DNA of 64,000 nt from Rhodothermales bacterium (GCA_040904565.1 JBBDTI010000054.1:22144-86143); one strand, 5' to 3'. Shown: positions 38,500-64,000, numbered from the stretch's first letter. The notes: generated by a model from the sequence alone, not told the origin. Translations and numbers: made by a program.

Positions 38500-38505
38500 T
38501 GCGAT

Positions 38506-39753: not shown

Positions 39754-39757
39754 GGCT

Positions 39758-42598
39758 TCAGTCTCGGTTGACGAGCTCGTTGATTCCGTTCAATATGGCA
39801 CGCCGCTGCTCCTGCGTATCGGCCTGCGACAGACGGCCCGACAGGGTCTGCAGGGCCTGCTGCGATCCGATTGCCGCGATGCGGCGGATCGTAAATTCAA
39901 GAATGTTCGGCAGCTCCGAGGCGAGGGCCACGTCGAGCGCCCGGCCCATATCGAGGGGCACGGTGGGCTCCGTGGCATACCAGACCATCAGAGGTTGGTT
40001 GTGGTCATCGGCGTCCTCGGAACGGAGGTGCAGTTCTTCAAGAACGGTCCACCGGCGATCCGGTTCGATGCGCTGCAGTGCGGCGGCGACGTGGAGCCGT
40101 ACCATGGCCGACTCGTCGTGGGCGGCCAGGCGAGTGAGAGCAGACATCGCGGCGTCCGAAATCTCACGGTCTTCAGCCAGCAGCTGAACGGCCCAGCTCC
40201 GGACGTATTCGTTTTCATGTGAGAGATACTCCACCAGCGCCGCGTCGGTGAGTCCGCCCGTGACGTGGAGAGCCCAGAGCCCGCGCAGCTGGTGTGCGGG
40301 CTCTGCTTCGTTGTCGATCAGGTCGTTCAGGGCGTCGTGGACGATTTCGTCGGCTCCCCGCTCTTGAAGAATACGCTGCGCGTGTCGGACGTACCACTCG
40401 TTATCGTGCGTCAGCAGGTCCACGAGCTCGGCGGAGGTCCGCTCCTGCACATTCACCCGCACGAACCGGTCGTTTTCGTGGCTGATCTTGAAGATGCGGC
40501 CCAGCGACTTTTCGTGGACGTCGGGATTCGGGCTGTGGCACTGGTTCTTGTCGTACCAGTCTATCGCGTGGACCGACCCGCCGGGTCCGTAGCGCAGGTT
40601 CAGCATCTGCGACCAGGCATCGTTAGCCATTAGAAAATCGTCTCCGTGGGTTGCGCGGTAGCCTGATCCGTCTCTCTCGAGAACGTCCGCGTTCACGCGG
40701 TACCCGTGGATGTTATTCATCAGGATCCGCGACCGGTACGTATCCGGCCAGCTTCCGCCCTGGTAGATCATGGCCCCTGCGTGCGCGTGCCCACCGCCTC
40801 CGCCGCGTCGGCTTCCGGCGGCCCAGCCCTTATCACCCACCCAGTGCACGTGGTCGGCGATCGTCTCGATGTCGTCGTACGTATATGGATTAAAGTGTTC
40901 GCCGGCCTGTCTGAAATAGCGGGCGCCCTGAACGACGTGGTATAGATGGGGGATGACGCAGGCCGTGATAAACGGCTGTCCGTACTCGTTCCAATCGAGG
41001 CCCCACGGGTTGCTCGTTCCGTGCGCGTAGACCTCGAATTCGTGACGCGTGGGATGATAGCGCCAGACCCCGGCGTTGAGGGGTGTGCGAAGCGAGTCGG
41101 GCGTTCCCGGTTCACCTACGTTCGAGTGCGTGAAGACGCCTTGCGTGCCGTAGAGCCATCCATCCGGACTCCAGCGAAACGAATTAAGGGTCTCGTGCGT
41201 GTCGTGATATCCCCATCCATCAAGCAGGATCTCCGGCTCGCCGGCGGGCCGATCGCCGGAGGCATCGATCGGGATATACATCAAGTAGGGTGCTGCGCCG
41301 ACCCACACGCCGTCGAACCCCACTTCGATGCCGCTGACGAGGTTGAGTCCCTCGACGAACACCTTCCGGCTATTTAGTGTGCCGTCGCCGTTCGTATCCT
41401 CGAAGATGAGGATGCGATCCTGCCCTTCACCGTCCGGCGCCCTGCGGGGATACGTACGTCCTTCCGCGACCCAGAGGCGGCCGCGGTCGTCGTACGTGAA
41501 GGCGATCGGGCGAACGACGTCGGGTTCTGAAGCGGCGACCTGTACGGAAAACCCCTCCGGAAGGTCCATGGCCTCGACGGCCTCCTCGGCGGAGAGTCCG
41601 GCGTGCTCGGGAAGCTGCAGGGCGGGAAGCGGCTCGGTCTCCTCGCGGGTCAGCTCGTTGGGAAAAGATGGCCTCGTTTCGTAGAAGCGGAACCGGTCGA
41701 AGCGGATATGAGCCCACTGGTGCGGATCGTGGAAGGGGTTGGACCGTTCCCCGGTCTCTTCGTCGACGATCTCGATGAAGATATCTTCTCCCATGTATTC
41801 GCTTACATCGACGACGACGGGGCGCAGGGACGCGCCGTCATGGCCCGATATGGAATAGAAGATCGTACCGTCGTCGGCGCGGCGAAGCTCTACGTGCGTG
41901 CCTTCGAACGCGCCTCCGGCGATGAGAAAGGCCGCGTACGGATGCGTGACTTCGAAGGGGGCGGACTGAAGGCGTCCGGTAGGCGCGCTCCCGGCCAGGG
42001 CGCCCGTATCGATCCAGTAGTCGCCGTCGTAATTGGAGGCCGGTTCGTGTTCATCGCTCGCCTCGATATCGACGGACGACACGGGCTGATCGTCGAAGGC
42101 CGTTCCGACCGCCGTCCAGTCCGCCAGCGTCCCGTCCTCAAAGTCGACGTTGATCGGAGGGGCCTGGCCCGGATCCTGCGCCACGTCGCCCGAGACGATC
42201 TCGAAGCGTCCTTCCATTCCGGCGGCCCGGTGGCCGGGAATCGTGCAGAAGTAAATGTCGTCGGCGACGGCCGTGAACGTGACGCTGGCGCGTTCGCCGA
42301 CCTCGAGGACCTCGTCCGTCTTGACCCCCAGTTCTTCCATCTTCAGGTCGTGAACCAGCGTCTCGCCGTTCACGATCGTGATCCGGACGACCTCGCCTTC
42401 TTCAGCGGTAAGGACCGGATTGCGTACGCCGTCGATCTCACCACCGATGCCCGTGTAGCCGAGCATGGTGGATTCCAGTACGTATTCCCGGTCGATCTCG
42501 GATGCGTCGTCGAGATCCTGCGCGCTCACGATGGAGGTCGTCGGCAGCCACGAGAGCAGCACGGAAAGGAGAAGGCGCTGAAGACAACGAGCGTACAT
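39758..42598 (-). CDS. Cupredoxin + 'membrane-bound dehydrogenase domain' + HEAT-repeat protein, paralog A
   Basis: ATG at 42598 gives the signal MYARCLQRLLLSVLLSWLPTTSIVSAQ. The core is collinear with 35926..38499, including an identical 44-aa stretch VWVGAAPYLMYIPIDASGDRPAGEPEILLDGWGYHDTHETLNSF encoded with synonymous differences. Extra N-terminal cupredoxin. The ORF upstream to 42856 is unsupported. Confidence 0.8.
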   Translation of the reverse strand: MYARCLQRLLLSVLLSWLPTTSIVSAQDLDDASEIDREYVLESTMLGYTGIGGEIDGVRNPVLTAEEGEVVRITIVNGETLVHDLKMEELGVKTDEVLEVGERASVTFTAVADDIYFCTIPGHRAAGMEGRFEIVSGDVAQDPGQAPPINVDFEDGTLADWTAVGTAFDDQPVSSVDIEASDEHEPASNYDGDYWIDTGALAGSAPTGRLQSAPFEVTHPYAAFLIAGGAFEGTHVELRRADDGTIFYSISGHDGASLRPVVVDVSEYMGEDIFIEIVDEETGERSNPFHDPHQWAHIRFDRFRFYETRPSFPNELTREETEPLPALQLPEHAGLSAEEAVEAMDLPEGFSVQVAASEPDVVRPIAFTYDDRGRLWVAEGRTYPRRAPDGEGQDRILIFEDTNGDGTLNSRKVFVEGLNLVSGIEVGFDGVWVGAAPYLMYIPIDASGDRPAGEPEILLDGWGYHDTHETLNSFRWSPDGWLYGTQGVFTHSNVGEPGTPDSLRTPLNAGVWRYHPTRHEFEVYAHGTSNPWGLDWNEYGQPFITACVIPHLYHVVQGARYFRQAGEHFNPYTYDDIETIADHVHWVGDKGWAAGSRRGGGGGHAHAGAMIYQGGSWPDTYRSRILMNNIHGYRVNADVLERDGSGYRATHGDDFLMANDAWSQMLNLRYGPGGSVHAIDWYDKNQCHSPNPDVHEKSLGRIFKISHENDRFVRVNVQERTSAELVDLLTHDNEWYVRHAQRILQERGADEIVHDALNDLIDNEAEPAHQLRGLWALHVTGGLTDAALVEYLSHENEYVRSWAVQLLAEDREISDAAMSALTRLAAHDESAMVRLHVAAALQRIEPDRRWTVLEELHLRSEDADDHNQPLMVWYATEPTVPLDMGRALDVALASELPNILEFTIRRIAAIGSQQALQTLSGRLSQADTQEQRRAILNGINELVNRD
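42191..42493 (-). other. Type-1 (blue) copper cupredoxin domain within 39758..42598
   Basis: Candidate ligand set His (LVHDL), then Cys-x4-His-x4-Met in YFCTIPGHRAAGM. The Cys codon at 42245-42247 was verified in the sequence. Confidence 0.65.
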
Positions 42599-42977
42599 CG
42601 GCGGGCAGTAGAGAAGGATATATAACTTGGAAAGCGAACAGGACCTGGAAGCCGGGTGGACGAGGAACACCGTCCCGCATCTAGGCCGCAGCAGCCGACC
42701 CACAATATACACGCGATGTGTCGACTTATGAAGGGTGGAGTCAAATGGAGCGCTCGTGCTCGAGCCAGGGCCTGTCTCGGCGCGGATGCGGAGCGGCTCT
42801 TGCCGTCCGGCTGGTGCCGCGCCGCATCCGTACCAACCGTTCTGCTGGTGCCGCATCGCATTGGCACGAACCGTTTGGTTATCTTATCGCGGCCGGCACG
42901 TCCAAAGAAAAGGCTGTGGACAGGGGCGGGGTAGTTCCGGCAAATGAAAGATTGCCCGAACAACTAGTCCGAGGTGC

Positions 42978-44527: not shown

Positions 44528-46063
44528 CTATGCGGCCCGGTCCCTCCGGGCCGAATAAACCGCCCACACCCACAATGCGATGCAAAGCACGCCCAGCGCG
44601 GCCGCGACGGGGCGTCCGAAGAAGGCGAGCGGGTCGCCGCCGGCGGAGGTCAGGATCTGAATGAACCGTTCTTCGAGCGGCGCGCCGAGAATGATGCCCA
44701 GGACGACGGGTCCGAGCGGAACGTCCATCCGCTCGAGCCCGAATCCGAGGAGCCCCATGCCCAGCATGACGGCGACGTCGAAATTGCTGCTGTTGATGGC
44801 GTAAGCTCCGACGATGCAGAGCAGGAGGATGATCGGCATGAGGAGTTTCTGCGGTACGCGCACGACGCGCGATCCCATCTTCACGGCGAGGAGTCCGACC
44901 GGCAGGAGCACCAGGTTCGCGACGATAAAGATCAGGTAGATGCTGTAGACGAGTCCGGCCTGCTCGAGGAAGATGTCCGGGCCCGGATTGACGTTCTTCA
45001 TCAGAAGGACGCCGATCACGATGGCCGTGATCGAGTCGCCCGGAATGCCGAAAACGAGCGCGGGTATCCAGGTACCGGCCAGGGCGGAGGAATTTGCCGC
45101 CGTGGCATCCGAGATACCGTCGATGGAACCCTTACCGTAGGCCTCCGGCGTGTCGCTGGCTCGCTTGGATGCGGCGAGGGAGACCCACGACGCGATGTCG
45201 GCCCCGGCACCGGGCAGCATGCCCACGAACGAGCCGATGACGCCGGATCGGAAGGTATGGCGAAGCCGTCTGCGAACGACCGAGAAGCCCGGCTTGATGA
45301 CGTCCACGATAGGGCCGATCAGATAGCGTCGTACGTGGGAGCGTCCCCGCCGTGCCGTCGACGGCGGCGTCATGCCGCCCAGGCCGGTGCCCCCGACGAG
45401 ATTGTTGAGCACCTCGGAGAGTCCGAACAGTCCGATCATGGCGGGAATGAAATTGATGCCCTGATACAGCTCGGGCCGGCCGAACGTGAACCGGGCCTCC
45501 GTGTGTACGGCGCTGAGGCCGACGGTCGACAACAAGAGACCGATCAGCATGGCCAGCGAAGCCTTGCTGAGCGCGCCTCGGGAGACGACCACGGCGGAGC
45601 TCAGACCGAGCACGTAGAGCCAGAAATATTCGGCGATGCTGAAAAAGGTCGCGACGCGGGCGAGTTGATGACCGAGCGTCATGAGCACGACGGCTCCGAA
45701 GAGTCCGCCTGCGACACTCGAAACGAGCATCGTCCCGAGCGCGAGGTCCGACCGCCCTTCCCTGGTAAGCGCGTAGGCGTCGTCGACGTACGCCGCCGAC
45801 GCCGGTGTACCGGGAATGCGCAGCAGCGTCGTGGGGAGGTCGCCGGCGAAGATGGCGCAGGCGACCATGGTAACGATGCCCGCGAGGGCGGGAATCGGAT
45901 CCAGCCAGTACGTCAGCGGGATGAACAGCGCGACCGACATCGTGGCCGTCAGTCCGGGCATGGAACCCATGAAGACGCCGTAGAGCGCCGAGAAGAAGAC
46001 GATCGCCAGGACCTCCGGACTGAGAACGACCTGCTGCAGGGCCTGAAGGAGGGCTTCACTCAT
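44528..46063 (-). CDS. tctA: Tripartite tricarboxylate transporter large permease
   Basis: ATG at 46063. About 511 aa polytopic membrane protein with a TctA-like FMGSMPGLTATMSVALFIPLTYWL. Confidence 0.85.
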   Translation of the reverse strand: MSEALLQALQQVVLSPEVLAIVFFSALYGVFMGSMPGLTATMSVALFIPLTYWLDPIPALAGIVTMVACAIFAGDLPTTLLRIPGTPASAAYVDDAYALTREGRSDLALGTMLVSSVAGGLFGAVVLMTLGHQLARVATFFSIAEYFWLYVLGLSSAVVVSRGALSKASLAMLIGLLLSTVGLSAVHTEARFTFGRPELYQGINFIPAMIGLFGLSEVLNNLVGGTGLGGMTPPSTARRGRSHVRRYLIGPIVDVIKPGFSVVRRRLRHTFRSGVIGSFVGMLPGAGADIASWVSLAASKRASDTPEAYGKGSIDGISDATAANSSALAGTWIPALVFGIPGDSITAIVIGVLLMKNVNPGPDIFLEQAGLVYSIYLIFIVANLVLLPVGLLAVKMGSRVVRVPQKLLMPIILLLCIVGAYAINSSNFDVAVMLGMGLLGFGLERMDVPLGPVVLGIILGAPLEERFIQILTSAGGDPLAFFGRPVAAALGVLCIALWVWAVYSARRDRAA

Positions 46064-46069
46064 GCTCGT

Positions 46070-47404
46070 TCACCATCCTAAAACCCCCCACGGAAGCGGC
46101 ACGCGCAGCAGTACGGCGAAGAGGTGGTACGTAACGACGGCCGACGCGACGGACGCCGCGAGGGCCACGGGAAGACGGACCCGCAGCAGGAGGAAGAAGC
46201 CGAGCAGGATACACGCAGCCGTGACGACGTACCCCAGCGATTCCACGACGAGCACGTACAGGAGGACGGCACCTATCGCTCCGGCGGCGAAGAGGATCCC
46301 ACGCCGGGTTACGTCATCCCGTTCTCGATCCTCCGACGTGTCGCGCCGGACGTGGGCCAGCACGGAGAGCACGAGCGAGACGCTCATCAGCACGCCGATC
46401 GCGGCGGGGAACAGCCAGGGCCCGTAGGTCTGCCGTCGCACGGACTCGAAGGCGGCGCTCTGAAAAATCTCCCCGAAGGCCCGGTTTTCTTCTTCCAGCG
46501 CCTCCGCGAACGCTTCGGGTCCGTCGGCCGCCGCACCGAAGCCCGCCCGCTCGGAGAACGCGAGATATTCGTCGCTCGTCACGACGTTGCGGACGGCCGA
46601 TTCGAGTACCTCGACGCGGTCTTCCGGCACGCCGAGAGGAAGGGCGAGCCCGCGCCACGTAAAGCTCGTCCAGTCGACGCCCGTCTCCTCCAGCGTCGGC
46701 ACGTCCGGTACGGATGGCAGCCGCTCTTCGGCCATGACGGTAAGGCAGCGAATTTCTCCGGCGTCGACGAGACTTTGCGCCTCCGGCACGCTGCAGCTGA
46801 CGACGTCGACGCCGCCCGCCATCATTTCCTGCAGCGATGGGGCGGATCCGTTCAGGGAGAGCCAGACGATGTCGCCAGCGCTCAGGTCGTTGCGAATCAG
46901 CCAGCCGGCGAGTGCCACGTGCCAGATCCCGCCGAAGGCCGTTCCGGATGCGCGCAACTCGCCCGGCCGATCGCGCACCTCCGCCTCCAGCTCGTCGATG
47001 GTTTCCCACGGCGAATCGGCCCGAACGAACAGGGCGGCATAGTCGCGATTGACCCGCATCAACGGCCGGAAGTCGCGGTGGGTAATGTTCGTGAGGCCGC
47101 GCCAGTGGAGCATGTTCAGCTCGGCCGTGATCATCGTCATCGTATATCCGTTCGGCTCGGCGAGCGCGCCGCGGGTATGGCCTGTAACGCCGGCGCCACC
47201 GCTGGCGTTGACCACGTTGACGGGCACGCCGAGCTCCTGCTCGAGCTGGGCGGCGATCTGCCGGGCGACCCGGTCGGTACCGCCGCCGACCGACCACGGC
47301 ACGATCATCGTGATAGGTCGGTTCGGAAAGGCGTCATCCGTCTGACATCCACCCGAGAAAAACCCCAGGAGGAGGACGAGCAGCAATGTGGAGAGCGAGC
47401 GCAT
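46070..47404 (-). CDS. TctC-type (Bug family) substrate-binding lipoprotein fused in frame to a TctB-like small membrane subunit
   Basis: ATG at 47404 (MRSLSTLLLVLLLGFFSGGCQ, lipobox). TctC core PNRPITMIVPWSVGGGTDRVARQIA. The C-terminal ~130 aa has four hydrophobic helices with a charged loop HVRRDTSEDRERDDVTRRG. No stop or in-frame start lies between the two parts. Confidence 0.75.
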   Translation of the reverse strand: MRSLSTLLLVLLLGFFSGGCQTDDAFPNRPITMIVPWSVGGGTDRVARQIAAQLEQELGVPVNVVNASGGAGVTGHTRGALAEPNGYTMTMITAELNMLHWRGLTNITHRDFRPLMRVNRDYAALFVRADSPWETIDELEAEVRDRPGELRASGTAFGGIWHVALAGWLIRNDLSAGDIVWLSLNGSAPSLQEMMAGGVDVVSCSVPEAQSLVDAGEIRCLTVMAEERLPSVPDVPTLEETGVDWTSFTWRGLALPLGVPEDRVEVLESAVRNVVTSDEYLAFSERAGFGAAADGPEAFAEALEEENRAFGEIFQSAAFESVRRQTYGPWLFPAAIGVLMSVSLVLSVLAHVRRDTSEDRERDDVTRRGILFAAGAIGAVLLYVLVVESLGYVVTAACILLGFFLLLRVRLPVALAASVASAVVTYHLFAVLLRVPLPWGVLGW

Positions 47405-47417
47405 GCGTGCGGGCAAT

Positions 47418-48695
47418 CTACCAGTTCTGGATGGAACCGTCGGGGCGCCGAAACTGGGGGATCGGATCGTCGTGGTCGGTGATTTCCGCAACGAGCTCGG
47501 CCTCTGCCGGGTCGAACGTGACGCCGAGTCCGGGCCGGTCGTTCGGGCGGATCTTGCCGTCGATAAACTCGAACGTTTCCGGCAGATGAGCCTCCGGGGA
47601 GGGACCGCTTCCCCGCATCTCGATGACGACGGGGTTGGGGGAGGAGCCGCAAGCGTGCACGAGCGCGGCCGTGGAGATTGTCCCGGTGAAATGCGGCACC
47701 AGGCCCACGTAATGGGTTTCACACAGTGCGGCGAGCTTCTTGAATTCCGTGATGCCGCCGGCATTTGGGAGCGTCACGCGTGAATAGTCGATCAGCCGGT
47801 CTTCGACGAGCTCGTTGACGGTCCACCGATCGCCGTAGTGCTCGCCGACGGCGATCGGAACGTTGACCTTCTGGCGGACGGTCTGGTATACCTCCTTGTT
47901 CTCCGAGCGAACCAGGTCTTCGACGAAAAACGGTTCGTAGGCTTCGATGAGGGCGCTCAGCCGTACGGCCTGGGTGAGATCGAGTCGCGTGTGGAAGTCG
48001 ATGCACCAGTGGCCCGCCGATCCGACCCCGCGGTGGACGGCTTCGCAGCGGGCGCGGTTGTGTTCGAAGATGTCGTTCGGATCGAACGTGTCGTCGCCGC
48101 GCGGATTGTCGGCCGAAATCCGATAGGCGTAAAAGCCGGCCTCTACGCAGGCACGGGCGGTAGACTCGAGGTCGCCCTGCCACGGGTAGCCGGTGGAGTA
48201 GCACTCGATATGGTCTCGCGTCAGCCCGCCCAGCATCTCGTATACGGGAACGTCGAGCGCGCGGCCCTTGATATCCCACAGCGCCATGTCGAGCGCACCG
48301 AGGCCGTGCAGCTTCTCGAGGCCTGGGGGATAAAACCAGCCGCGGTACATGAGCTGCCACAGATGTTCGATCTGGAATGGATCTTGGCCGACGATCTGGG
48401 CAGCCATCTGCTCGATCATGTCGGGCGTGCCGCCTTCGCCCACCCCCGTGATGCCGCCGTCCGTTTCGACGGTGACGACCCGGTTGCTCTGATTGAAGGT
48501 GCGATTGAGGTTGGATGGCTCGTAGACGCGAATCCGCGTGATGCGCAGGTCGGAGCGTCCGGGGATGGCACCGAGGCTTGCGGTGTGAGCGCCCGGCTTC
48601 GCATCAGCAGTTGCAGCGGCACGTTCCGGCAGGCCCGAAACAAGTCCGACACACGCCCCCAGCGCGGCCGTACCCAGGAAAGCTCGTCGATTCAT
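47418..48695 (-). CDS. Enolase-superfamily dehydratase (mandelate racemase/ManD-RspA-like subgroup) with twin-arginine signal
   Basis: ATG at 48695. MNRRAFLGTAALGACVGLVSGLPERAAATA. Metal-ligand context WCIDFH, FFVED, AVGEH. Catalytic His in LVPHF. Confidence 0.8.
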   Translation of the reverse strand: MNRRAFLGTAALGACVGLVSGLPERAAATADAKPGAHTASLGAIPGRSDLRITRIRVYEPSNLNRTFNQSNRVVTVETDGGITGVGEGGTPDMIEQMAAQIVGQDPFQIEHLWQLMYRGWFYPPGLEKLHGLGALDMALWDIKGRALDVPVYEMLGGLTRDHIECYSTGYPWQGDLESTARACVEAGFYAYRISADNPRGDDTFDPNDIFEHNRARCEAVHRGVGSAGHWCIDFHTRLDLTQAVRLSALIEAYEPFFVEDLVRSENKEVYQTVRQKVNVPIAVGEHYGDRWTVNELVEDRLIDYSRVTLPNAGGITEFKKLAALCETHYVGLVPHFTGTISTAALVHACGSSPNPVVIEMRGSGPSPEAHLPETFEFIDGKIRPNDRPGLGVTFDPAEAELVAEITDHDDPIPQFRRPDGSIQNW

Positions 48696-50427: not shown

Positions 50428-51822
50428 ATGATCAATCGTAAACGACTATTCGTCGGCAGCTGGATCGCGCTCGTCGTGACCTCTTTCGGGTTTATCATCC
50501 GCGCCCTGGTGCTGGCCGAATGGGGCCGTGAGTTCACGCTGAGTCAGGAGGACCTCGGCTGGATCGCCGGTGCCGGACTCTTTCCGTTCGCCATCACGAT
50601 CGTTCTTTTCAGCCTGGTGATCGATAAGATCGGCTACCACACGTCGATCCGGATCGCCTTCGTGGGGCACGTCGTTTCGGCGATCGTCACGATCTGTGCC
50701 GGACTCATTGGAGATCCGTTCTGGGTGCTTTTCATCGGTACGGTGATTCTGGCGCTGTCTAACGGTATCGTGGAGGCCGTCATCAATCCGGTTACCTCGA
50801 CGCTGTATCCGAAGTCGAAGACCCACCACCTCAATATCCTGCACGCGGGATGGCCCGGCGGACTCGTGCTGGCCGGCATCATCGTGATCTCGCTCGGTGA
50901 TGCGGACTGGCGCTGGAAGGTGGGCCTCGTGCTCCTGCCGACGTTCGTCTACGGCGCGATGCTGCTCAATCAGAAATTCCCGCTCAACGAGCGTGTCGCG
51001 GCCGGCGTACCGTATCGCGACATGATTCGAGAGATCAAGCGGCCGTTGTTCCTCCTCCTGCTGGCCATCATGGTCCCGCTTGCGGTGACCGAACTGGGTA
51101 CGGACAGCTGGATCACGGCCCTGATGGAAAACGTGCTGACTTCAGGCATACATCCTGGATGGGTGCTCGTCTATACGTCGGCGATCATGCTGGTGCTTCG
51201 CTTTTTCGCCGGACCGATCGTGCACCGGATCAACCCGCTCGGACTCCTTGCCTGCAGCGCATTCATCGCGTGCCTCGGCCTCATCTGGCTCTCCAACGCG
51301 GGAGCAGCACTCGGCGCCGTTTTCGCCGCGGCGACGTTCTACGCGCTCGGAAAGACGTTTTTCTGGCCGACGACGCTCGGGGTGGTGGCGGAGCAGTTCC
51401 CGAAGGGCGGCGCCCTGCTCCTCAACACCATGGGCGGCATGGGCATGCTCGCGGCCGGACTCCTCGGCGCGCCTATCCTGGGTTCCATTCAGGACAAGGT
51501 GATCGACCAGGAGCTGCAGCAGCGGGCGCCTGAGGTGCACCAGCAGGTCACCGACGCCGAACGTCTGGGACTCCTCGGTGCGTACAATCCGCTGGACAAC
51601 CAGGCCGTGCAGGAGCTGCCGATGGAGCAGGCAGAGGTCGTACGAGAGGTGCGGTCGGACTCGAGTCAGATCGCGCTCCGCTACGTCGCGTTCCTGCCGG
51701 CGTTAATGCTGCTGTGCTACATCGGACTGATCCTTTACTTCCGATCTCAGGGTGGATACAAGCCAGTCGAACTCGAAGGCGAACAGGCCACGGGGGGCGT
51801 GGAAGGCCCGGTAGAGGCCTGA
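50428..51822 (+). CDS. MFS transporter
   Basis: ATG at 50428. 12 or more hydrophobic segments. MFS-like loop LVIDKIGYH. Substrate unknown. Confidence 0.8.
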   Translation: MINRKRLFVGSWIALVVTSFGFIIRALVLAEWGREFTLSQEDLGWIAGAGLFPFAITIVLFSLVIDKIGYHTSIRIAFVGHVVSAIVTICAGLIGDPFWVLFIGTVILALSNGIVEAVINPVTSTLYPKSKTHHLNILHAGWPGGLVLAGIIVISLGDADWRWKVGLVLLPTFVYGAMLLNQKFPLNERVAAGVPYRDMIREIKRPLFLLLLAIMVPLAVTELGTDSWITALMENVLTSGIHPGWVLVYTSAIMLVLRFFAGPIVHRINPLGLLACSAFIACLGLIWLSNAGAALGAVFAAATFYALGKTFFWPTTLGVVAEQFPKGGALLLNTMGGMGMLAAGLLGAPILGSIQDKVIDQELQQRAPEVHQQVTDAERLGLLGAYNPLDNQAVQELPMEQAEVVREVRSDSSQIALRYVAFLPALMLLCYIGLILYFRSQGGYKPVELEGEQATGGVEGPVEA

Positions 51823-56746: not shown

Positions 56747-56927
56747 CGCCCCTCGCGCATTCCACGTGCCCCCTTCCGCAGCCGTCGACGCAAGGAACCT
56801 GCACCTTTTTGGATATTAACAGTATGTTATCATTGCCGTATCAGCGGCTGTGTCAGATAGGAAACGCCGGACGGTTCTTTTCGAGAGGAGGGACCGCTCG
56901 TCGATTTCATCGTGCAGGTTTATCGGC

Positions 56928-56950
56928 AGGCCCGGTTTAACCGGCCTTTT
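56928..56950 (+). terminator. GC-rich hairpin followed by TTTT (intrinsic terminator or leader attenuator)
   Basis: AGGCC(C)GGT-TTA-ACCGGCCT then TTTT, read directly. 180 nt after the HAD stop and 92 nt before the 57042 start. Confidence 0.45.
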
Positions 56951-57041
56951 CCCCTAGTCGTGTACACGTCGTCGTATACAATCGTCGGGCCGTTGGGCGA
57001 TCTTCGAAACGCTATCTCTAGCTTCTGCCTCTCCGTCGTAC

Positions 57042-58088
57042 ATGATCCGATTTGTGTTGAGCGTCGGGCTCGTCGCCGCGATCTGTGCGGGCATCCTTTT
57101 TCTGCCCGTGGATGTGCCGTATACGGTTTCGGGTAATGGCATCGTTATGCCGGCACAAGAATGGCTGATCGTGCGAGACGCGGGCGGGTCGATCGGAACG
57201 ATGCTTCGAGACCACCTCGATGGAACCGTGCGCAGCGCCGATCTGCATCGTTTCGAAAGAGGGGATGTGGTACGGTATCGTCTCCATCCATCCATCGGAG
57301 CGCGAACGCCGATCTCGGAAGGTGATACGATCCTGACCATTCGGTCAAACGAGACGGAGCGCCGGATAGCGGCCCTGAGCGGTGATGTCGCGTCCGCCGA
57401 GTCGACCGTCTCCCTGCAGACCTCCGGGGAAAAGGAGCCCGTTGTCGTGCGTGCCGAACGTAATCTGGCTCGTGTGATGGAGGAACTGGCGCAGGCACGC
57501 CGAGAGGTAAACCGTCTTGCGCCCCTTGCCGAACGGCGTGTCGTTGCGCAGCAGGAGCTGGATCTTGCCCAGAGCCGTGTGCAGGTGCTCGAGGCCGAGG
57601 TCGAGATGGCCAGAGCGGAGCTGGAGATGGTACGGACGGGCGCCAGAGACGAACAGGTGGACGTGGCGCGAAGCATCGCCGCCGCGCGCCGGCAGGAACT
57701 GGAAGCCCTCTCCGAACGCCGTGATATGCTGACGGTCCGCACACCGATCGGGGGCGTGGTCGTGCGTTCGTACGGTGCCGACACGCTGCTGACCGTACGC
57801 GACACGTCGTCCGCCGTCGCCGTCGTGCCGATTCCGGTGACGGACGCACGGTACGTACGGGTGGGGCAGCCGGTCACGCTGGATATGCAGGACATGTCCG
57901 TTCGACTCGAGGGGCGTCTCGTGCGCATCGACGAGACGGTTCGTCGCCTCCAGGGATCACAGGTTGTGATGGCCGTCGTGCGGGTAGACAGTCCAGTACG
58001 AGACACCATCGTCGGTGGTATCGTTCGCTGCACCATCTCGGCAGATTCCGTACGTCTGCTGGAGTACGCTCGCAGGAAAGTACAGTAG
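57042..58088 (+). CDS. HlyD/membrane-fusion-protein-like periplasmic adaptor (orphan; no pump gene adjacent)
   Basis: ATG at 57042. N-terminal TM MIRFVLSVGLVAAICAGILFL. About 100-aa Ala/Arg/Glu/Leu coiled coil (ARREVNRLAPLAERRVVAQQELDLAQSRVQVLEAEVEMARAELEMVR). LTVRTPIGGVVV beta-barrel motif. Confidence 0.7.
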   Translation: MIRFVLSVGLVAAICAGILFLPVDVPYTVSGNGIVMPAQEWLIVRDAGGSIGTMLRDHLDGTVRSADLHRFERGDVVRYRLHPSIGARTPISEGDTILTIRSNETERRIAALSGDVASAESTVSLQTSGEKEPVVVRAERNLARVMEELAQARREVNRLAPLAERRVVAQQELDLAQSRVQVLEAEVEMARAELEMVRTGARDEQVDVARSIAAARRQELEALSERRDMLTVRTPIGGVVVRSYGADTLLTVRDTSSAVAVVPIPVTDARYVRVGQPVTLDMQDMSVRLEGRLVRIDETVRRLQGSQVVMAVVRVDSPVRDTIVGGIVRCTISADSVRLLEYARRKVQ

Positions 58089-58097
58089 TATCCTAGT

Positions 58098-58886
58098 ATG
58101 CGCGACGAATTCAAATATGTGCTGCCCGTGGACGCGCTGCCCGACGTACGTCGGGCCATCGAGCCCTTTGTACGTCTGGACGAGCACGGCGTGGGCTTCG
58201 AGGAGGTGGGGTACGCCGTGCGCAGCATTTATCTCGACTCCGCCAGGCTGCGATTCTACCACGAGAAGAGGGGGCATCTTCAGCACCGCAAGAAGATTCG
58301 AATCCGGGGATACAACGAGCCCGGGGTGGATCCTTCCGTCTTTCTGGAAATCAAGCGAAAATCGAATGCCGCCATCGCGAAAGAGCGGACGATGATGCCG
58401 TACGACGACCTGCTCGGGCTCATACAGACGGGACGGGTTGCGGCGCACATGGCTTCGTTATCGGTGGAAGACAGTGCCGTGGTTCGACGCGCCTTCTACC
58501 ACATGTTCAAACACGACCTCCGGCCGACCTGTCTGGTCGTTTACGAGCGGGAGGCGTTCGAAGGGCGGTTCGACCGTACGTTTCGCATCACGCTGGACAG
58601 AAATCTGCGCGGCGTGATGTACCCGGATTGGCACGGGCTGTACGAGGAGGACGGCCTCGTCGATGCCTTGCCCGGATATTTTGTCATGGAGGTCAAGTTC
58701 GATATCCGCATGCCTGCCTGGATGCGTCAGGTCATCTCCGAGTTTGGGATCATGCAGCGGGCGCTGTCCAAATACTGTGTCTGCATCGACGCGTTCGAGC
58801 GACGAATCGATACGAAATCGGCCGTCCTGGCGTGTGCGCCGCCGATACGGACTGCCACTCAGGTATCCGTCCACGTCACGGGTTGA
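58098..58886 (+). CDS. VTC domain protein (polyphosphate polymerase-type triphosphate-tunnel fold)
   Basis: ATG at 58098, 9 nt after the upstream stop. MRDEFKYVLP start strand, VRSIYLDS, KIRIRGY, FLEIKRK and FVMEVKF strands are typical of bacterial VTC/CYTH-like proteins. Confidence 0.7.
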   Translation: MRDEFKYVLPVDALPDVRRAIEPFVRLDEHGVGFEEVGYAVRSIYLDSARLRFYHEKRGHLQHRKKIRIRGYNEPGVDPSVFLEIKRKSNAAIAKERTMMPYDDLLGLIQTGRVAAHMASLSVEDSAVVRRAFYHMFKHDLRPTCLVVYEREAFEGRFDRTFRITLDRNLRGVMYPDWHGLYEEDGLVDALPGYFVMEVKFDIRMPAWMRQVISEFGIMQRALSKYCVCIDAFERRIDTKSAVLACAPPIRTATQVSVHVTG

Positions 58887-58896
58887 TAACGGAAGC

Positions 58897-59574
58897 ATGC
58901 TTCAAGACTTTCAGAATATATCGCTTCAGGCCGTGGATCTCGGCTTCATCCTGAGTGCCCTCGGGGTGTCGTTCGTATGTGGACTCGCGATCGCCGTGCT
59001 GTACCAGGTCACGTACAAAGGTTCGAGCTATTCACCGACCTTCGTGCGAGCGCTCATCTTCATGGCCATGATTACGGCCATCGTCATGCTGGCCATCGGC
59101 AACAACTTGGCCAGGGCGTTCGGACTCGTCGGTGCCATGTCGATTATCCGTTTCCGAACCGCCGTCAAGGACCCGCAGGATATCGTGTTCGTGTTTTTCG
59201 CCCTGGCGACGGGCCTGGCTGCAGGCGTGGGCATGTTCATGGTCGCCATCGTCGGTACGACGGTAATCGGAACCGTCGTGGCCCTGGCGTCCGGGACCGA
59301 TTTCGGCGTGAAGAACCGCCAGTCCTTTCTCATGCAGCTGACGTACGATGCGCCGAAGCACAACGGGGAGGCATCGTACCTGCCAATCCTCGAGAGGTAT
59401 TGCAAAAAGCACGACCTCGTGAACGCCAAGAGCGCTCAGGGTGGGGACGTGCTCGACCTTACATTTTTCGTGAAGCTGCGCCGCGACGATCAGCTTGAGG
59501 CGTTCACGCGCGATCTAGGGGGCGCGGAGCACGTCCGTCACGTCAATGTCTTCTATGACGAACAGGAGGCGTAA
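58897..59574 (+). CDS. DUF4956 family integral membrane protein
   Basis: ATG at 58897, 10 nt after the VTC stop. Hydrophobic N-half with GAMSIIRFRTAVKDPQDIVFVFFALATGLAAGVG. Soluble C-terminal ~70 aa. Confidence 0.7.
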   Translation: MLQDFQNISLQAVDLGFILSALGVSFVCGLAIAVLYQVTYKGSSYSPTFVRALIFMAMITAIVMLAIGNNLARAFGLVGAMSIIRFRTAVKDPQDIVFVFFALATGLAAGVGMFMVAIVGTTVIGTVVALASGTDFGVKNRQSFLMQLTYDAPKHNGEASYLPILERYCKKHDLVNAKSAQGGDVLDLTFFVKLRRDDQLEAFTRDLGGAEHVRHVNVFYDEQEA

Positions 59575-59578
59575 CACC

Positions 59579-62500
59579 CTATCGTACGAAGGTCACCGTG
59601 CGCGTCACGCTGAACGATCGACCCGTCGCCCGCAGCAGGTAGATGCCGCTCGCGAGGCCCGCACCGTCGACCGTGATGGTGTGGAGGGCCCCTTCCGAAA
59701 CAGAGCCGTCGTAGAGTACGCGCAGCCGGCGGCCCAGCATGTCGTACAGTTCTACGCGCACGGGCTGCGTCTCACTCACCGTCAGCACGCTTTCGGCGCG
59801 GGTCTGGGCCGGGTTCGGATATACGGATGTAAGTGCGTTGTCCCCACTCGGTACGGGCTCGGGCTCCGGTTCCGCGGGAGCCGCGTAGAGCACGAACGGC
59901 CGCGGCATGGCGCGCCACGCCGCCGGGTCGTCGCTGTAGGATGAGACCTCGAGGCGAAAGAGCGAGGATCCGCCGCCGTCGGCCGGCTCCGGCCAGGGCG
60001 AGGCATCGCCGAACGTGACGCGTTCTTCAAGCGTTTCCGGAATGAAGTCGGGATCGTCCGCGGGGGGCTCGTCCGGCCGGTTTAACTCCAGCATTTCTCC
60101 GTCATTGGCCAGACGGCCCTCCCATCCACCCACCAGGAGCGCGTCCCGGGTCCATCCATAAGCCGCCCGGAACGTCTCCGCTTTCTCCGGGGCGTTCTGA
60201 GGGTCGAAGGCGACGACGAAGAGGCTGTCGCCGGCACCCAGGATCAGTCCGTCAGGGAACGTGAAGTCGACGGCTTCTCGGACGGTCCACGCCGTCAAGT
60301 CTTCGGGCTCCGCGCCGGCGTTGTAGATCCCCACGTATTCCAGGTTTTCGTTATTACCGGGCGGATGGTACATGATTTCGCGCACGACGACGGAACCGAC
60401 GCGCGGCGCGGCATTGGCTCGCCCCAGCGTGATTTCCGACAGCGGAGCCAGACGGCCGCTCCCGTCCAAACGTCTTCCCAGGGATTCTCCGTTGCGGGCC
60501 GGTCCGAAAACGACGTGATCCGCGAAACGCACGGGGCGGCCGTCGGCATCGGTTTCCACCAGCCAGACTTCTTCACCGCGTGCGCCGTCGAGGGCGAAGT
60601 CGTTCTCCGAGCCGGACGCATTGAAGTCGGACTCATTGAAGACGATGAAGTCGCCCGGCTCGATCGTCGTGCCGTCCGGTATGTGGTACTTGTCGAACGG
60701 CAGGCCGTCGCTGAGGAACCAGCCGCTTATATCGACGGGTTCCGTCGAAGTGTTGTAGAGCTCCACGGCATCCGTCTCGGGAGGGTCCGTGTGCGACAGG
60801 ATCTCGTTTACTACGACATCTACCGCGACATCCTTCCCGGTGAATGGCCCGGCGATTCCGGGCGAACCATGGTATTCGGCGCTCGCCAGCCACATCTCCG
60901 CCCGATCCGCTTCCCGAGCATGCAGGACCGGTTCTTCCGTAAGAACGAGCGAGCTGCCGGCGCCGTCCGCGCGCGACGGCCACGCTCCTCCGTCGCCATA
61001 GTCGACCGTAAAGACGATCTCACCGCTGCGGTCTGCCAGCGTAACCCGCTCCCCGCCGTTGCTCAGACGTCCGTCCTCGAAGACGCCCCCGATCTGGATG
61101 TCTGTACCGAACCGGGCTCGAAAGGCGGTGGAGTCAGACACGAGAACGGTGCGGGCGTCCGAGGCCAGGGACGTCGACCCGAACGAGAAATCGATACCGT
61201 TCGTGAAGGAGAGTCCGGCCAAAGCCACGGCACGGTCGGAACGGTTATGCAGCTCGATGAACTCGAAATCATCGCCGTCCACCATGCCCGCGGCCTGTTC
61301 GCCGGGTGTTGGATCGGGCGGATGGTAGTAGATCTCCGAGATTACCAGGGCGCCGGGCGTGGGAGCGGCGGTGTCGACGAAATATTCGGCGTCGCTGCGG
61401 GCGGACCATTCCCCCTCGTCGGACAGAAAGCGTGCGCTGACGGTCTGCCGTCCGGCGAGCGGCAGTGCTTCACCGTCGTATTCGACGGCTGCACCTGAGA
61501 CCGCACCGCCCAGCAGGCGTGGGTCGCTGCCGTCCAGCGTATAGTAGACGGATCCACCTGACGGTGCGTCGAGCGTAACCTGGTCGCTGCCGGAAATCTC
61601 GCCGCCGTCGTGGCTGAACGCGGGTGCGTCGACGGACGGATACAGGGGGGCGGGCGTGGTGCCCGCGCCCGACTCACCGCGCACGAATCGTTGGGCCGTC
61701 TGGAGCTGTTCGAGCAATACGTCACGTCGGGCGGGGAGAATGCCGTTTCGAAGCCGGGCCACCTCCGTTTTCCAGTCCGCCAGCCCTCTCGGCGGTTCAC
61801 GTTTCGCGTCGCCCCAGCGCGCCGATTCACTGATCAGCACGTCTTCGATCTCCGCCTTTCGCGTATCCATGCGGGCGACGCTCGGTGACGTCGTCATAGC
61901 ACCGCCGTCGAACAGATGCCGATGCGCGAAGTCGGCGAAGCGGAACCGGTATTCCGGCGAGCCCATTAATTGCTGGTGGATCCACTGCGGGTTGCTGAAC
62001 CGAAACTGATCTCCGGCGGGGAACGGTCCGGTCCGGTCGATCGACGGATCCAACAACGCGTGCTCGCTGTCGTGCGCGAACCACTTGAAACCATGATCGC
62101 CGGTCCGATCGCGGTATCCGAAGAAATTGTTCGTACCCATGAACGGCGTGATCGGAGCGTCCGGATTGCCCGTCCAGAAAATGACGAGCATGTACTGGAT
62201 CAGATTATCGGCGTCCAGCAAGACGGGATAGGAAGGATTGCCCGTTCCGTCGGGGTCGAGACCCTGGAGCCGCATATACCATGCATCGCGCTCTTCTTCG
62301 GACTCCGCGGCCGCGAGCGTGTTGACGCCGTTGTACAGATCACGCCAGGCGTCAACCTTGCCGGACGTCATTTCCATCTCGTACCCGTTGTCGAGTCCGG
62401 CCGACTTGACGACGTCGAAATCGTCGGCATTCCCCCCTATGTACGTGGCGCCATGATGGTGGTCGGCACGTTCCTGCGTCTGAAAGAGCCCCCAGTACTG

Positions 62501-64000
62501 CCCGTTGATGTAGAGATGGTAGTACCGGCTGCGCGTATACGGAACGTCGATGTCTCGCTGCAGGTCTCGCGCAAATACGTCGCGCAGCATCGTGTTGCGC
62601 GCGTCGCCGGTAAACGCCCATGAGTAGTTCTGGCTGGTACGAAGATCGAATTTGTCGAACTCGTTCGCCCCTTCGTCGCCGAAGAGGGGATACGAGAGGA
62701 GCGGCTCCCCATACTCGCCCCGAAAGAAGATTCGAAACGCATGTTTCGGATTGGGATCGTTGCGGCTCCAGCCGCCGCGAATTCTAATTCCGGCATTGGC
62801 CTGAAATCCGCTTCGGGGTCCGTGGTAGCTTTCGCCTCCCGTCGAGGCAGGAAAATCGCCCGGGTAAAACAGCTCGACCGAACCGGGCCGTTCCCAGTCG
62901 CGGCCGTAGCTGAGCGCGTTCGAATAGATGCCCCGCGTCGGTGAGAAGAGGGAATCGACGTCCATCACGAGAGAGAAAGAGGGGATGCGGCCGAGCGCTT
63001 CAATAATATCGGCCTCGTTCCCGTCTACGACGTTCGGGTCCATGCCGTAATCGACGTGATTGCTGCCCCAGAAACCGGGCCATCCCTCTGGCGGCTGCCC
63101 CTCGGGCGACTGCGTCAGGACGTCGGCCGGAAAAAGATAGGTCTGGGTCACGACGCCGGATCGCTGCGCGCCTTCCTTGAAAGCGGCGGCGCGCACGACC
63201 GTCGTCTTTTCAATCCGAATGGGGTTCGTATAGGCTCGTCCGGTAGAATCCGTCGGCTCGCTCCCGTCCAGCGTGTAGCGAATGGTACTGCCGGACGTCT
63301 CGGGGAAAAGGAAGAGCGAGAAGGGCTCCTCGTAGAGGCCGTGGACGGCACTGTACGTAGGCTCATCCACAATCCCGCCGGCACCGGGAGCGTTGGGCTG
63401 CCCCGGCGTGGGCGTGGTGAAATACGTGACACCGTCGCCCGCGTGCCCGTACGAGACGTCACCACGCTGCTCCGGATACGGCGCGAACTCGCTGACCACC
63501 ACGCCGTCCGGGTCGACGAGCCCGAGGTACTCTCCGTCCTGGCTCAGGCTGAAATTTGTGTGGTACTCGCTATTTTCCAGAAATGACAGCTCCGGCGCGA
63601 GGCCGCGTCCGTCTGCCGCCGGAGCGTCTGTTTCGAACGTCAGAAAAGGGATGAGCGTCAGGTCGGACGATCCCTGATTCGCGTTGTGTACCTCGATTGC
63701 CAGAACGTTCGGCCCGGTCTGGAAGACGGACCCGGGGATGGAAATGTCGAACCGTTCCGGCGTTCCTCCCTGGTAGAGCACGGCTTCATGCAGGCCGTCC
63801 GCCGGCGTCTGATGGGTCGGATCGGTCGCTGACATGTTGCCTCGGGCGACTTCCAGTCCGTTGACATATGCGATGAACCCATCGTCATAATCGACGTGCA
63901 ACAGGGCCTGTCGTATCGCGCTCGGGTCGTCTACCGTAAACGTCGTGCGCGCATAGAGCGCCATAATGCCGTCCTGCACGGACGTCTGGATGTCGGCTCC
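59579..64000 (-). CDS. Giant secreted CotH kinase-family protein with lamin-tail (LTD) domains, chitobiase-C-like domains and T9SS C-terminal sorting domain; N-terminus outside the window
   Basis: The frame stays open upstream of the GTG at 63979 to the window edge, and no signal peptide is seen. CotH core RIRGGWSRNDPNPKHAFRIFF...YYHLYINGQYWGLFQTQER. At least three LTDs (VISEIYYHP..FEFIELHN; VVNEILSHTD..AVELYN; VVREIMYHPP..EYVGIYN). YTLDGS[ED]P motif twice. Confidence 0.85.
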   Translation of the reverse strand, partial: GADIQTSVQDGIMALYARTTFTVDDPSAIRQALLHVDYDDGFIAYVNGLEVARGNMSATDPTHQTPADGLHEAVLYQGGTPERFDISIPGSVFQTGPNVLAIEVHNANQGSSDLTLIPFLTFETDAPAADGRGLAPELSFLENSEYHTNFSLSQDGEYLGLVDPDGVVVSEFAPYPEQRGDVSYGHAGDGVTYFTTPTPGQPNAPGAGGIVDEPTYSAVHGLYEEPFSLFLFPETSGSTIRYTLDGSEPTDSTGRAYTNPIRIEKTTVVRAAAFKEGAQRSGVVTQTYLFPADVLTQSPEGQPPEGWPGFWGSNHVDYGMDPNVVDGNEADIIEALGRIPSFSLVMDVDSLFSPTRGIYSNALSYGRDWERPGSVELFYPGDFPASTGGESYHGPRSGFQANAGIRIRGGWSRNDPNPKHAFRIFFRGEYGEPLLSYPLFGDEGANEFDKFDLRTSQNYSWAFTGDARNTMLRDVFARDLQRDIDVPYTRSRYYHLYINGQYWGLFQTQERADHHHGATYIGGNADDFDVVKSAGLDNGYEMEMTSGKVDAWRDLYNGVNTLAAAESEEERDAWYMRLQGLDPDGTGNPSYPVLLDADNLIQYMLVIFWTGNPDAPITPFMGTNNFFGYRDRTGDHGFKWFAHDSEHALLDPSIDRTGPFPAGDQFRFSNPQWIHQQLMGSPEYRFRFADFAHRHLFDGGAMTTSPSVARMDTRKAEIEDVLISESARWGDAKREPPRGLADWKTEVARLRNGILPARRDVLLEQLQTAQRFVRGESGAGTTPAPLYPSVDAPAFSHDGGEISGSDQVTLDAPSGGSVYYTLDGSDPRLLGGAVSGAAVEYDGEALPLAGRQTVSARFLSDEGEWSARSDAEYFVDTAAPTPGALVISEIYYHPPDPTPGEQAAGMVDGDDFEFIELHNRSDRAVALAGLSFTNGIDFSFGSTSLASDARTVLVSDSTAFRARFGTDIQIGGVFEDGRLSNGGERVTLADRSGEIVFTVDYGDGGAWPSRADGAGSSLVLTEEPVLHAREADRAEMWLASAEYHGSPGIAGPFTGKDVAVDVVVNEILSHTDPPETDAVELYNTSTEPVDISGWFLSDGLPFDKYHIPDGTTIEPGDFIVFNESDFNASGSENDFALDGARGEEVWLVETDADGRPVRFADHVVFGPARNGESLGRRLDGSGRLAPLSEITLGRANAAPRVGSVVVREIMYHPPGNNENLEYVGIYNAGAEPEDLTAWTVREAVDFTFPDGLILGAGDSLFVVAFDPQNAPEKAETFRAAYGWTRDALLVGGWEGRLANDGEMLELNRPDEPPADDPDFIPETLEERVTFGDASPWPEPADGGGSSLFRLEVSSYSDDPAAWRAMPRPFVLYAAPAEPEPEPVPSGDNALTSVYPNPAQTRAESVLTVSETQPVRVELYDMLGRRLRVLYDGSVSEGALHTITVDGAGLASGIYLLRATGRSFSVTRTVTFVR
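59582..59827 (-). other. Por/T9SS type-A C-terminal sorting domain
   Basis: LTSVYPNPAQTRAESVLTVSETQPVRVELYDMLGRRLRVLYDGSVSEGALHTITVDGAGLASGIYLLRATGRSFSVTRTVTFVR matches the YPNP...V.L.vyD.lGr.v...G.h....d...l.sGiY consensus. Confidence 0.8.
61700..62992 (-). other. Approximate extent of the CotH kinase-like domain inside 59579..64000
   Basis: Mapped by residue counting from IPSFSLVMDVD... to ...RRDVLLEQL. Boundaries are approximate (about +/-50 nt). Confidence 0.5.

Follow-up and report, generated by a model that had tools for sequence, protein, structure and literature searches.

Towards the end of a 64,000-nucleotide stretch of DNA from a Rhodothermales bacterium (GCA_040904565.1, JBBDTI010000054.1:22144-86143; ~63% GC), here called the window, a periplasmic adaptor of the kind found in tripartite pumps is encoded next to a protein of the VTC polyphosphate-polymerase family, a membrane protein of family DUF4956 and a giant CotH protein predicted to be cargo of the type IX secretion system (T9SS). 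The question raised by this locus is what such an adaptor might serve in the place of a pump. Comparison across genomes shows that the adaptor, VTC and DUF4956 genes make up a single conserved operon that has been passed on as a unit across diderm bacteria of the FCB group, and a tentative answer is that the operon makes polyphosphate and exports it. The features concerned are given below, with positions counted from the first nucleotide of the window.

56747..57041, + strand: intergenic region upstream of the operon, 295 nucleotides, the presumed promoter region, between the end of a HAD hydrolase gene (56746) and the adaptor start
57042..58088, + strand: adaptor gene (EmrA/HlyD/MacA-type membrane fusion protein), 348 amino acids; HlyD_3
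58098..58886, + strand: VTC-domain gene, putative polyphosphate polymerase, 262 amino acids; PF09359
58897..59574, + strand: DUF4956 inner-membrane protein gene, 225 amino acids, start MLQDFQ; PF16316
59579..64000, - strand: gene for the giant CotH/lamin-tail T9SS cargo protein, 5' end past the window edge; Pfam and NCBIfam

In the open reading frame (ORF) calls for the window the spacers are 9 nucleotides between adaptor and VTC and 10 nucleotides between VTC and DUF4956, and the DUF4956 and CotH genes are convergent with their stop codons 4 nucleotides apart. This layout and all of the domain assignments, as proposed in an earlier note made from the sequence alone, were borne out by the ORF calls and by the Pfam and NCBIfam profiles. 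The minus-strand CotH ORF is free of stops up to the window edge and so exceeds 1,470 codons, its N-terminus and signal peptide region lying beyond the window.

The evidence for the operon comes from searches in two directions. An alignment of 20 diverse VTC homologues was used to scan one genome per GTDB species, which gave 513 relatives, and the best 80 of these were fetched as species-level loci with 10-kb flanks. They belong to Rhodothermales, Bacteroidales and other Bacteroidota, Ignavibacteriales/Melioribacteraceae, Calditrichia, KSB1, Latescibacterota, Krumholzibacteriota, Chlorobiota, Zhuqueibacter and Anaerolineae. When their six-frame ORFs were searched with the window proteins and clustered all-against-all, three families proved near-universal: VTC (80/80), DUF4956 (79/80) and the adaptor (73/80). 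The DUF4956 gene is directly 3' of VTC in 79 of the 80 loci, and the adaptor gene, where present, is directly 5' of VTC on the same strand, the sole exception being locus L015, where it is nearby on the opposite strand. Median gaps are 3 nucleotides from adaptor to VTC and 11 nucleotides from VTC to DUF4956. The reverse search, from an alignment of the adaptor, yielded 25 metagenome loci with adaptor identities of 27-53%, and in all 22 that have downstream DNA the adaptor is followed by VTC and then by DUF4956. An arrangement that recurs in 73 of 80 independent species-level loci is far beyond chance, and the linkage across genomes, which the earlier note had named as a check, is thus very strong in both directions.

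These figures leave practically no room for the idea that the juxtaposition is accidental or an artefact of annotation, such as a HlyD-like ORF that is not a real gene. Two antisense ORFs do overlie the adaptor gene (56954-58228, - strand, 424 amino acids; 57345-57956, - strand), the longer of them overlapping it throughout, and a simple, crude filter on third-position GC content preferred an antisense ORF. Such ORFs are the usual by-product of 63% GC; these are typical high-GC shadow ORFs, and similar shadows clustered across the loci. The adaptor, in contrast, folds confidently in structure prediction and is conserved down to ~22% identity over the 73 loci that carry it, which refutes the artefact. 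Its clade comprises 505 clusters (50% identity) at E<=1e-30 in a representative library of 1.84 billion proteins. Nearly all of the 150 best-scoring matches are ~350 amino acids long and align over almost their full length. One homologue (P0340) has 475 amino acids, with a 175-residue N-terminal extension ahead of the conserved region that may be a fusion or a miscalled start.

No ABC, RND, MFS, AaeB-type or outer-membrane-factor family recurs near the adaptor in the ~105 loci (80 GTDB and 25 metagenome). The adaptor had been described as an orphan, and this holds in so far as no conventional pump or outer-membrane factor is adjacent; it is nevertheless not an orphan, since VTC and DUF4956 are its constant partners in 73/80 and 22/22 loci. 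Pairing with a conventional pump elsewhere, which would have spoken against the earlier proposal, was never seen in the clade. In one close relative (L003:8259-9989), where the adaptor is 52% identical, the DUF4956 gene follows the adaptor gene after 12 nucleotides, the VTC gene between them is missing and the convergent gene for a CotH protein with lamin-tail domains is kept. Because this locus keeps adaptor and DUF4956 adjacent without VTC, it points to these two membrane proteins as the tightest pair.

The adaptor matches HlyD_3 in Pfam (E 8e-7). Its NCBIfam matches to DevB, EmrA and MacA are weak and all below cutoff, the best being DevB with 39 bits against 129, and the scores for DevB, EmrA/EmrK, MacA, CzcB and RND_mfp all lie far below the curated NCBIfam cutoffs; judged by these scores, it is a clade separate from the named adaptor subfamilies. 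A profile of the adaptor searched against the PDB matched ZneB, MacA, EmrA and AcrA. The AF2 model is confident (mean pLDDT 85) and has a transmembrane helix (residues 2-20), a beta/lipoyl region (24-102), an alpha-hairpin (103-229) and a lipoyl plus beta-barrel region (231-338). The hairpin arms are ~62 residues each (103-164 and 170-229) with the modelled tip at 165-169, and there is no membrane-proximal domain. The top 50 Foldseek matches are without exception adaptors of tripartite systems, the best being MacA (5e-14) and EmrA of EmrAB-TolC (2e-13), both of which work with transporters. The RxxxLxxxxxxS or "RLS" motif is the route by which MacA, AcrA, MexA and HlyD bind the tip of TolC (PMC3391258). 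Over the adaptor clade its columns hold Arg in 72/74, Leu in 66/74 and Ser or Thr in 53/74 sequences, and in the window adaptor the motif reads R158-x3-L162-x6-A169, placed at the modelled hairpin tip. The predicted structure shows a genuine periplasmic-adaptor fold with the motif for docking to an outer-membrane factor.

The VTC protein matches PF09359 with 138 bits (cutoff 23, E 4e-40) over residues 2-232 of 262 and model positions 2-233 of 235, and the family profile matches in the PDB solely yeast Vtc4, Vtc2 and Vtc3 (E 3e-15). The residues of the Vtc4 catalytic tunnel, a list that we take to be that of Hothorn et al. 2009, were mapped from the HMMER alignment to 3G3Q and 8I6V in native Vtc4 numbering. 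Lys6 corresponds to Lys200, Arg68 to Arg264, Arg70 to Arg266, Lys86 to Lys281, Lys95 to Lys294, Tyr149 to Tyr359, Arg151 to Arg361, Arg163 to Arg373, Glu198 to Glu426 and Ser224/Lys225 to Ser457/Lys458. All of these residues are invariant in the 20 diverse bacterial VTC homologues, so that loss of the tunnel Lys, Arg and Glu residues, which would have counted against a polymerase, is not seen. Since the tunnel residues are all conserved, the protein has what Vtc4 needs for phosphate polymerisation, and it is best described as a soluble Vtc4-type triphosphate-tunnel protein and putative polyphosphate polymerase. No match to SPX or DUF202 was found by Pfam in any protein of the operon.

A different cargo might be imagined, with DUF4956 as a new ion or small-molecule transporter, the VTC-fold protein as an energiser that hydrolyses nucleoside triphosphates or triphosphate, or as a regulator, and the adaptor in its usual role in efflux or secretion. 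Adaptors normally partner energised transporters, the C-terminal domain of DUF4956 has an ACT-like ligand-binding fold, and most triphosphate-tunnel enzymes are hydrolases or cyclases rather than polymerases (PMC8233210, PMC4641920). The match to the VTC family is, however, specific, the PDB matches being confined to Vtc4, Vtc2 and Vtc3, and the set of Vtc4 polymerase residues is complete, including the equivalents of K200, R264, R266, E426 and K458; nor is there a known precedent for a tunnel enzyme that powers a transporter. We consider such a pump quite unlikely.

The DUF4956 protein matches PF16316 with 57 bits (cutoff 30.6, E 2e-15). It has five predicted helices (residues 15-133) followed by a ferredoxin/ACT-like C-terminal domain (144-220), and this domain was matched alone, and weakly, by Foldseek to the ACT-like folds of NikR and PGDH. 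The core G68-NNLARAFGLVGAMSIIRFRTAVKD-95 is near-invariant with basic residues R73, R85, R87 and K91; across phyla the core GNNLARAFGLVGAMSIIRFRTAVKD is almost invariant, the conserved charged residues being R73, R85, R87, K91, D92 and D95. From the positive-inside rule we infer that the RFRTAVKD segment within it faces the cytoplasm. Against the MgtC/SapB (YhiD) model NF007431 the protein gives E 0.003 and 17 bits (cutoff 214), and some homologues carry a precomputed PF02308 match, which suggests at most a distant superfamily relationship with MgtC/SapB/YhiD.

Other genes recur beside DUF4956 in some lineages. A gene for an SdiA-regulated/phytase-like beta-propeller (PF06977/PF13449) is directly 3' of DUF4956 in ~10 loci of several lineages (for example L049:11381-12178 and L015:2321-3493) and may be a further phosphate-related accessory component. 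In two related loci (L027:11553-13763 and L044:3852-6062) an OmpR-type response regulator and a HAMP histidine kinase are encoded immediately 3' of DUF4956 and may be a dedicated regulator. The remaining recurrent neighbours, namely dnaA, a low-molecular-weight phosphatase, PALP, an NTP-transferase, PD-(D/E)XK and PLD proteins, two-component systems, a Tricorn-like protease and cytochromes, were rejected as parts of the system and attributed to lineage-specific synteny.

The distribution of the adaptor appears to follow the cell envelope. With a more sensitive hidden Markov model (HMM) the adaptor was not found in the six Anaerolineae loci, five of which are informative, L016 having only ~200 nucleotides of upstream DNA; nor was it found in one Ignavibacteriales locus (L056) or in the two Firmicutes loci inspected, on Pseudobutyrivibrio plasmid pNP95 and on a Planococcus plasmid. 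Both Chloroflexota and Firmicutes have a single membrane, and the pattern fits an adaptor that is needed only where a periplasm and an outer membrane exist. In a rough neighbour-joining tree, drawn from VTC and DUF4956 in concatenation and without support values, the Anaerolineae are one clade nested within the adaptor-bearing FCB sequences and the Firmicutes lie outside.

The convergent CotH gene encodes a protein that matches PF08757 with 73 bits (cutoff 23.8, E 4e-20), together with three lamin-tail domains (LTD, 3e-42), two CHB_HEX_C_1 domains (5e-25) and Por_Secre_tail. Its T9SS sorting domain scores 35.1 bits with TIGR04183 (cutoff 23) and 27.0 bits with PF18962, which is exactly at the cutoff. 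From the N-terminal region onwards the order is CHB_HEX_C/Fn3_assoc, the CotH kinase domain (~398-745), CHB_HEX_C, the three lamin-tail domains and a type A T9SS C-terminal domain (1386-1461). A phmmer search of the CotH region against the PDB gave no match and a profile was needed: that of the CotH domain from related loci matched Bacillus cereus CotH (5JD9) with E 1e-31. ORF residues D607 and D637 align to D224 and D247 of the B. cereus protein, which are D228 and D251 of B. subtilis CotH, where mutation of these residues inactivates the enzyme (PMC7821199). The CotH homologues in loci L004, L006, L012, L025 and L049 start with signal peptides.

With a CotH-domain HMM a CotH gene was found within 10 kb in 25 of the 80 loci, or in 17 (~40%) of the 42 whose flanks extend 5 kb or more in each direction, and in 11 of the 25 metagenome loci. 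In both sets these genes lie directly beside the operon, on either side, in either orientation and in many phyla. In many loci the full architecture of CotH, LTD, CHB_HEX_C and T9SS tail directly flanks the operon, and in the Anaerolineae CotH with LTD is also nearby, without the T9SS tail. CotH is therefore a frequent, not obligatory, accessory of the operon. The giant protein might instead be an unrelated T9SS cargo that is a neighbour in this genome by accident; CotH is missing from 55 of the 80 neighbourhoods, and the gene, being convergent, is not co-transcribed with the operon. Recurrence in both sets of loci over many phyla argues against this, as does the fact that CotH adjoins VTC-DUF4956 in Anaerolineae, Lachnospiraceae and Planococcus and in the published streptococcal, clostridial and bifidobacterial operons, and an accidental neighbour seems to us a slim prospect.

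At locus L004 (1-6526 and 9299-10666) several CotH and LTD/T9SS paralogues surround the operon, with a divergent CotH and LTD gene, a gene with LTD and the T9SS C-terminal domain and a further CotH gene upstream, and a large convergent gene downstream, which suggests an expansion of secreted partners. At the Ignavibacteriales locus L056 (4199-9810) two T9SS cargo genes lie 5' of VTC; judged from their translations, one product resembles a triple LamG-like protein that has a metallophosphoesterase region and the other is GH16/malectin-like.

The reading that we prefer, and to which we give a little less than even confidence, is that ATP-driven synthesis of polyphosphate is coupled to its export across both membranes, and that secreted CotH proteins use or bind the product. 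The Vtc4-like tunnel enzyme, in the cytoplasm, would build polyphosphate from the gamma-phosphate of ATP on the inner side of the cytoplasmic membrane and hand the growing polyanion to a DUF4956 oligomer, much as the Vtc proteins of yeast hand it to their transmembrane ring. The invariant, cytoplasm-facing segment of DUF4956 rich in Arg and Lys would be the counterpart of the channel mouth of Vtc1/Vtc4, and the inside-negative membrane potential may help to pull the chain outward. Yeast VTC couples polyphosphate synthesis to translocation, as described in PMC9911596. The EmrA/HlyD-type adaptor, anchored beside DUF4956, would form a periplasmic tube whose hairpin tips dock through the RLS motif onto a TolC-like outer-membrane channel encoded elsewhere, so that the product would bypass the periplasm. 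Outside, the CotH kinase delivered by T9SS, with its lamin-tail and carbohydrate-binding modules, would bind the polyphosphate or use it, for instance as a donor of phosphoryl groups in a place with little ATP. Monoderm lineages would manage with the same VTC-DUF4956(-CotH) core and no adaptor. Both the export of polyphosphate and the use of the polymer by CotH are things that we purely infer.

This proposal keeps the outline of the split, VTC-like export machine suggested earlier. The operon linkage, the tunnel residues and the adaptor without a pump all stand in its favour; the linkage to CotH is partial (25/80), and the trio of CotH, VTC and DUF4956 was known before. The bolder claim would be that of a new class of double-membrane-spanning exporter, a polymerase-coupled translocase of Vtc4-like protein and DUF4956, not of the ABC, RND, MFS or AaeB type, which extrudes polyphosphate as it is made through the adaptor and a TolC-like channel; outside the cell, secreted CotH kinases would have the exported polymer as their phosphoryl donor or as a scaffold. 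We regard this as possible, though on the doubtful side.

A number of observations weigh against coupled synthesis and export. The interior of TolC-type channels is electronegative, a poor fit for a polyanion unless it travels with counter-cations. In the window adaptor the Ser of the RLS motif is replaced by Ala, and adaptors are found in some Gram-positive bacteria too, such as Spr0693 among the Foldseek matches. At locus L056 there is no adaptor within 10 kb, and the contrast between diderms and monoderms represents only two or three independent evolutionary events. CotH is absent from ~60% of neighbourhoods. The AF2 model of DUF4956 is of moderate confidence (mean pLDDT 69), its transmembrane domain matches no solved transporter and a sequence search found no PDB structure. 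Its only detectable resemblance, below threshold, is to the MgtC family, whose members are known as regulators and not as channels or transporters. A linked TolC-family outer-membrane factor was not found in any locus neighbourhood, although such factors are often unlinked. As to the Ala, the equivalent MacA mutant S143A retains some activity (PMC3391258).

In a rival reading the VTC protein makes polyphosphate, but delivery goes no further than the cytoplasmic membrane or the periplasm; DUF4956 would anchor or regulate the polymerase, and the adaptor would be a periplasmic scaffold or sheath that holds or organises the polymer rather than a conduit to an outer-membrane channel. The lack of a linked outer-membrane factor in the ~105 loci and the MgtC-like resemblance agree with this, and for the Streptococcus intermedius proteins it was suggested that polyphosphate stays cytoplasmic, other VTC subunits being missing (10.1101/2024.04.20.589940). 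Against a scaffold stand the conservation of the RLS docking motif at the hairpin tip and hairpin arms of ~62 residues, equal in length to those of adaptors that reach TolC; the recurrent partners are predicted to be secreted by T9SS or Sec and to end up on the cell surface, in keeping with a product outside the cell. We think such a scaffold unlikely and keep coupled synthesis and export as the preferred reading.

Parts of the locus have appeared in the literature. In Gram-positive bacteria, Whitfield et al. (10.1101/768473, PMC7112168) described a conserved block of accessory genes, contiguous with pel operons, that consists of cotH, a gene for a polyphosphate polymerase and DUF4956. A 2024 preprint on S. 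intermedius (10.1101/2024.04.20.589940) lists SIR_1594 as a secreted CotH, SIR_1593 as VTC-like and SIR_1592 as a protein with four transmembrane helices and an ACT domain that is MgtC-like, and its authors could not find the trio outside pel operons. The adjacency of CotH, VTC and DUF4956 is published for streptococcal, clostridial and bifidobacterial operons (10.1101/768473; 10.1101/2024.04.20.589940). The FCB and Anaerolineae loci show that the three families are widespread outside pel operons, and the same block is present on the Pseudobutyrivibrio and Planococcus plasmids. In these Firmicutes plasmid loci (L086:152-16660 and L087:4470-12075) it lies among glycosyltransferases, acyltransferases, pyruvyl transferases and a HEAT-repeat protein. 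The necrotic-enteritis locus NELoc-2 of Clostridium perfringens has two VTC-type genes, CotH and HEAT, and the Planococcus plasmid locus is alike; the plasmid loci, which resemble NELoc-2, suggest a connection with the making of surface glycopolymers and not with pel alone. In the literature consulted no paper was found that joins a VTC protein or polyphosphate polymerase with a HlyD-type adaptor, and no prior description was found of the adaptor-bearing FCB form, of its broad occurrence away from pel loci or of the contrast between monoderms and diderms. The locus had been put forward as an undescribed system, and this has to be narrowed to the adaptor-bearing form, the trio itself having been reported beside pel.

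Polyphosphate synthesis in bacteria is textbook PPK1 and PPK2 chemistry, a picture that would change if there were a widespread second route by an enzyme of the eukaryotic Vtc4 type. Polyphosphate on or outside bacterial cells has been reported, and we know of no export route for it. A polymerase wedded to a membrane protein and a periplasmic adaptor is a concrete, testable candidate for one, and the proposal, if true, would give tripartite adaptors a fifth kind of partner in the inner membrane. It also suggests a phosphoryl donor for secreted CotH kinases, and how these kinases might work without ATP outside the cell; CotH kinases are tied to biofilm (pel) loci in streptococci and to NELoc-2 of C. 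perfringens. Two open questions, the export of bacterial polyphosphate and the phosphoryl donor of secreted CotH kinases, become directly testable, the operon being cleanly built and the invariant K6, R68 and R70, the RLS motif and the DUF4956 RFR motif being ready targets for mutation.

The surroundings of the operon in the window are unrelated to it. The five genes on its 5' side encode an aminotransferase, a C-N hydrolase, a Reg_prop propeller, a 3-keto-disaccharide hydrolase and the HAD hydrolase. No ABC, RND or outer-membrane-factor genes are within 23 kb upstream, and there are no pel genes among the window genes from 34 to 57 kb, which cover the same 23 kb. An MFS gene (50428-51822) was rejected as a partner of the adaptor; it is 5 kb away with the five unrelated genes between and is not conserved at other loci. 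A sigma-70 scan of the 295-nucleotide upstream region found no element on the + strand, Bacteroidota-type promoters not being covered by the tool, and the promoter and terminator scan of the operon was uninformative. PADLOC gave zero matches and so no sign of a defence system. The window VTC protein is identical, residue for residue, in a Rhodothermales metagenome-assembled genome (GCA_040875675.1). Further upstream, on the - strand (35926-42856), two large paralogous DUF7133 proteins (857 and 1032 amino acids) are encoded on either side of an FG-GAP repeat protein, the larger additionally with HEAT repeats and a weak cupredoxin match. An ORF on the - strand (46070-47764), beside TctA (44528-46063), combines two domains of a tripartite tricarboxylate transporter, TctC (periplasmic receptor) and TctB (small membrane subunit), and may represent a fusion of the two; its true start is probably later, the called start overlapping a neighbouring enolase-superfamily gene.

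Comparison with known systems shows what is shared and what is particular to the operon. Like the pel accessory block it brings CotH, VTC and DUF4956 together, with a CotH predicted to be secreted, but it lacks pel genes within 23 kb upstream, is headed by an adaptor gene and has a convergent CotH gene whose product carries lamin-tail domains and a T9SS sorting domain. With the Bacillus CotH spore-coat kinase (5JD9) the window CotH shares the kinase-like fold family and both catalytic aspartates; the Bacillus enzyme acts inside the mother cell, where ATP is available, whereas the window protein is a giant multidomain T9SS cargo predicted for the surface or the medium. The DUF4956 protein resembles MgtC/SapB/YhiD in its approximately five N-terminal helices and C-terminal ACT-like cytoplasmic domain, although the sequence similarity is marginal, DUF4956 has its own near-invariant GNNLARAFGLVGAMSIIRFRTAVKD core and MgtC has no known pairing with a VTC protein or an adaptor. 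The adaptor has the N-terminal transmembrane anchor, the lipoyl and beta-barrel domains, the long hairpin and, in its clade, the RLS tip motif of tripartite-pump adaptors, and like EmrA it is without a membrane-proximal domain. In contrast to theirs, its invariable neighbours are a tunnel polymerase and a 225-residue DUF4956 protein, in the place of an ABC, RND, MFS or AaeB-type transporter, with no linked outer-membrane factor found. Finally, the eukaryotic VTC complex (yeast Vtc4/Vtc3/Vtc1; 7YTJ, 8I6V) has the same catalytic family, PF09359, with all of the tunnel residues, and in both the enzyme invariably comes with a small polytopic membrane protein, suggesting that synthesis and translocation are coupled. 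The bacterial catalytic and membrane parts are, however, separate polypeptides without an SPX sensor domain, the membrane partner is DUF4956 and not a three-helix transmembrane domain of the DUF202 type, and the bacterial system adds a periplasmic adaptor, its proposed target being the cell exterior and not the vacuole.

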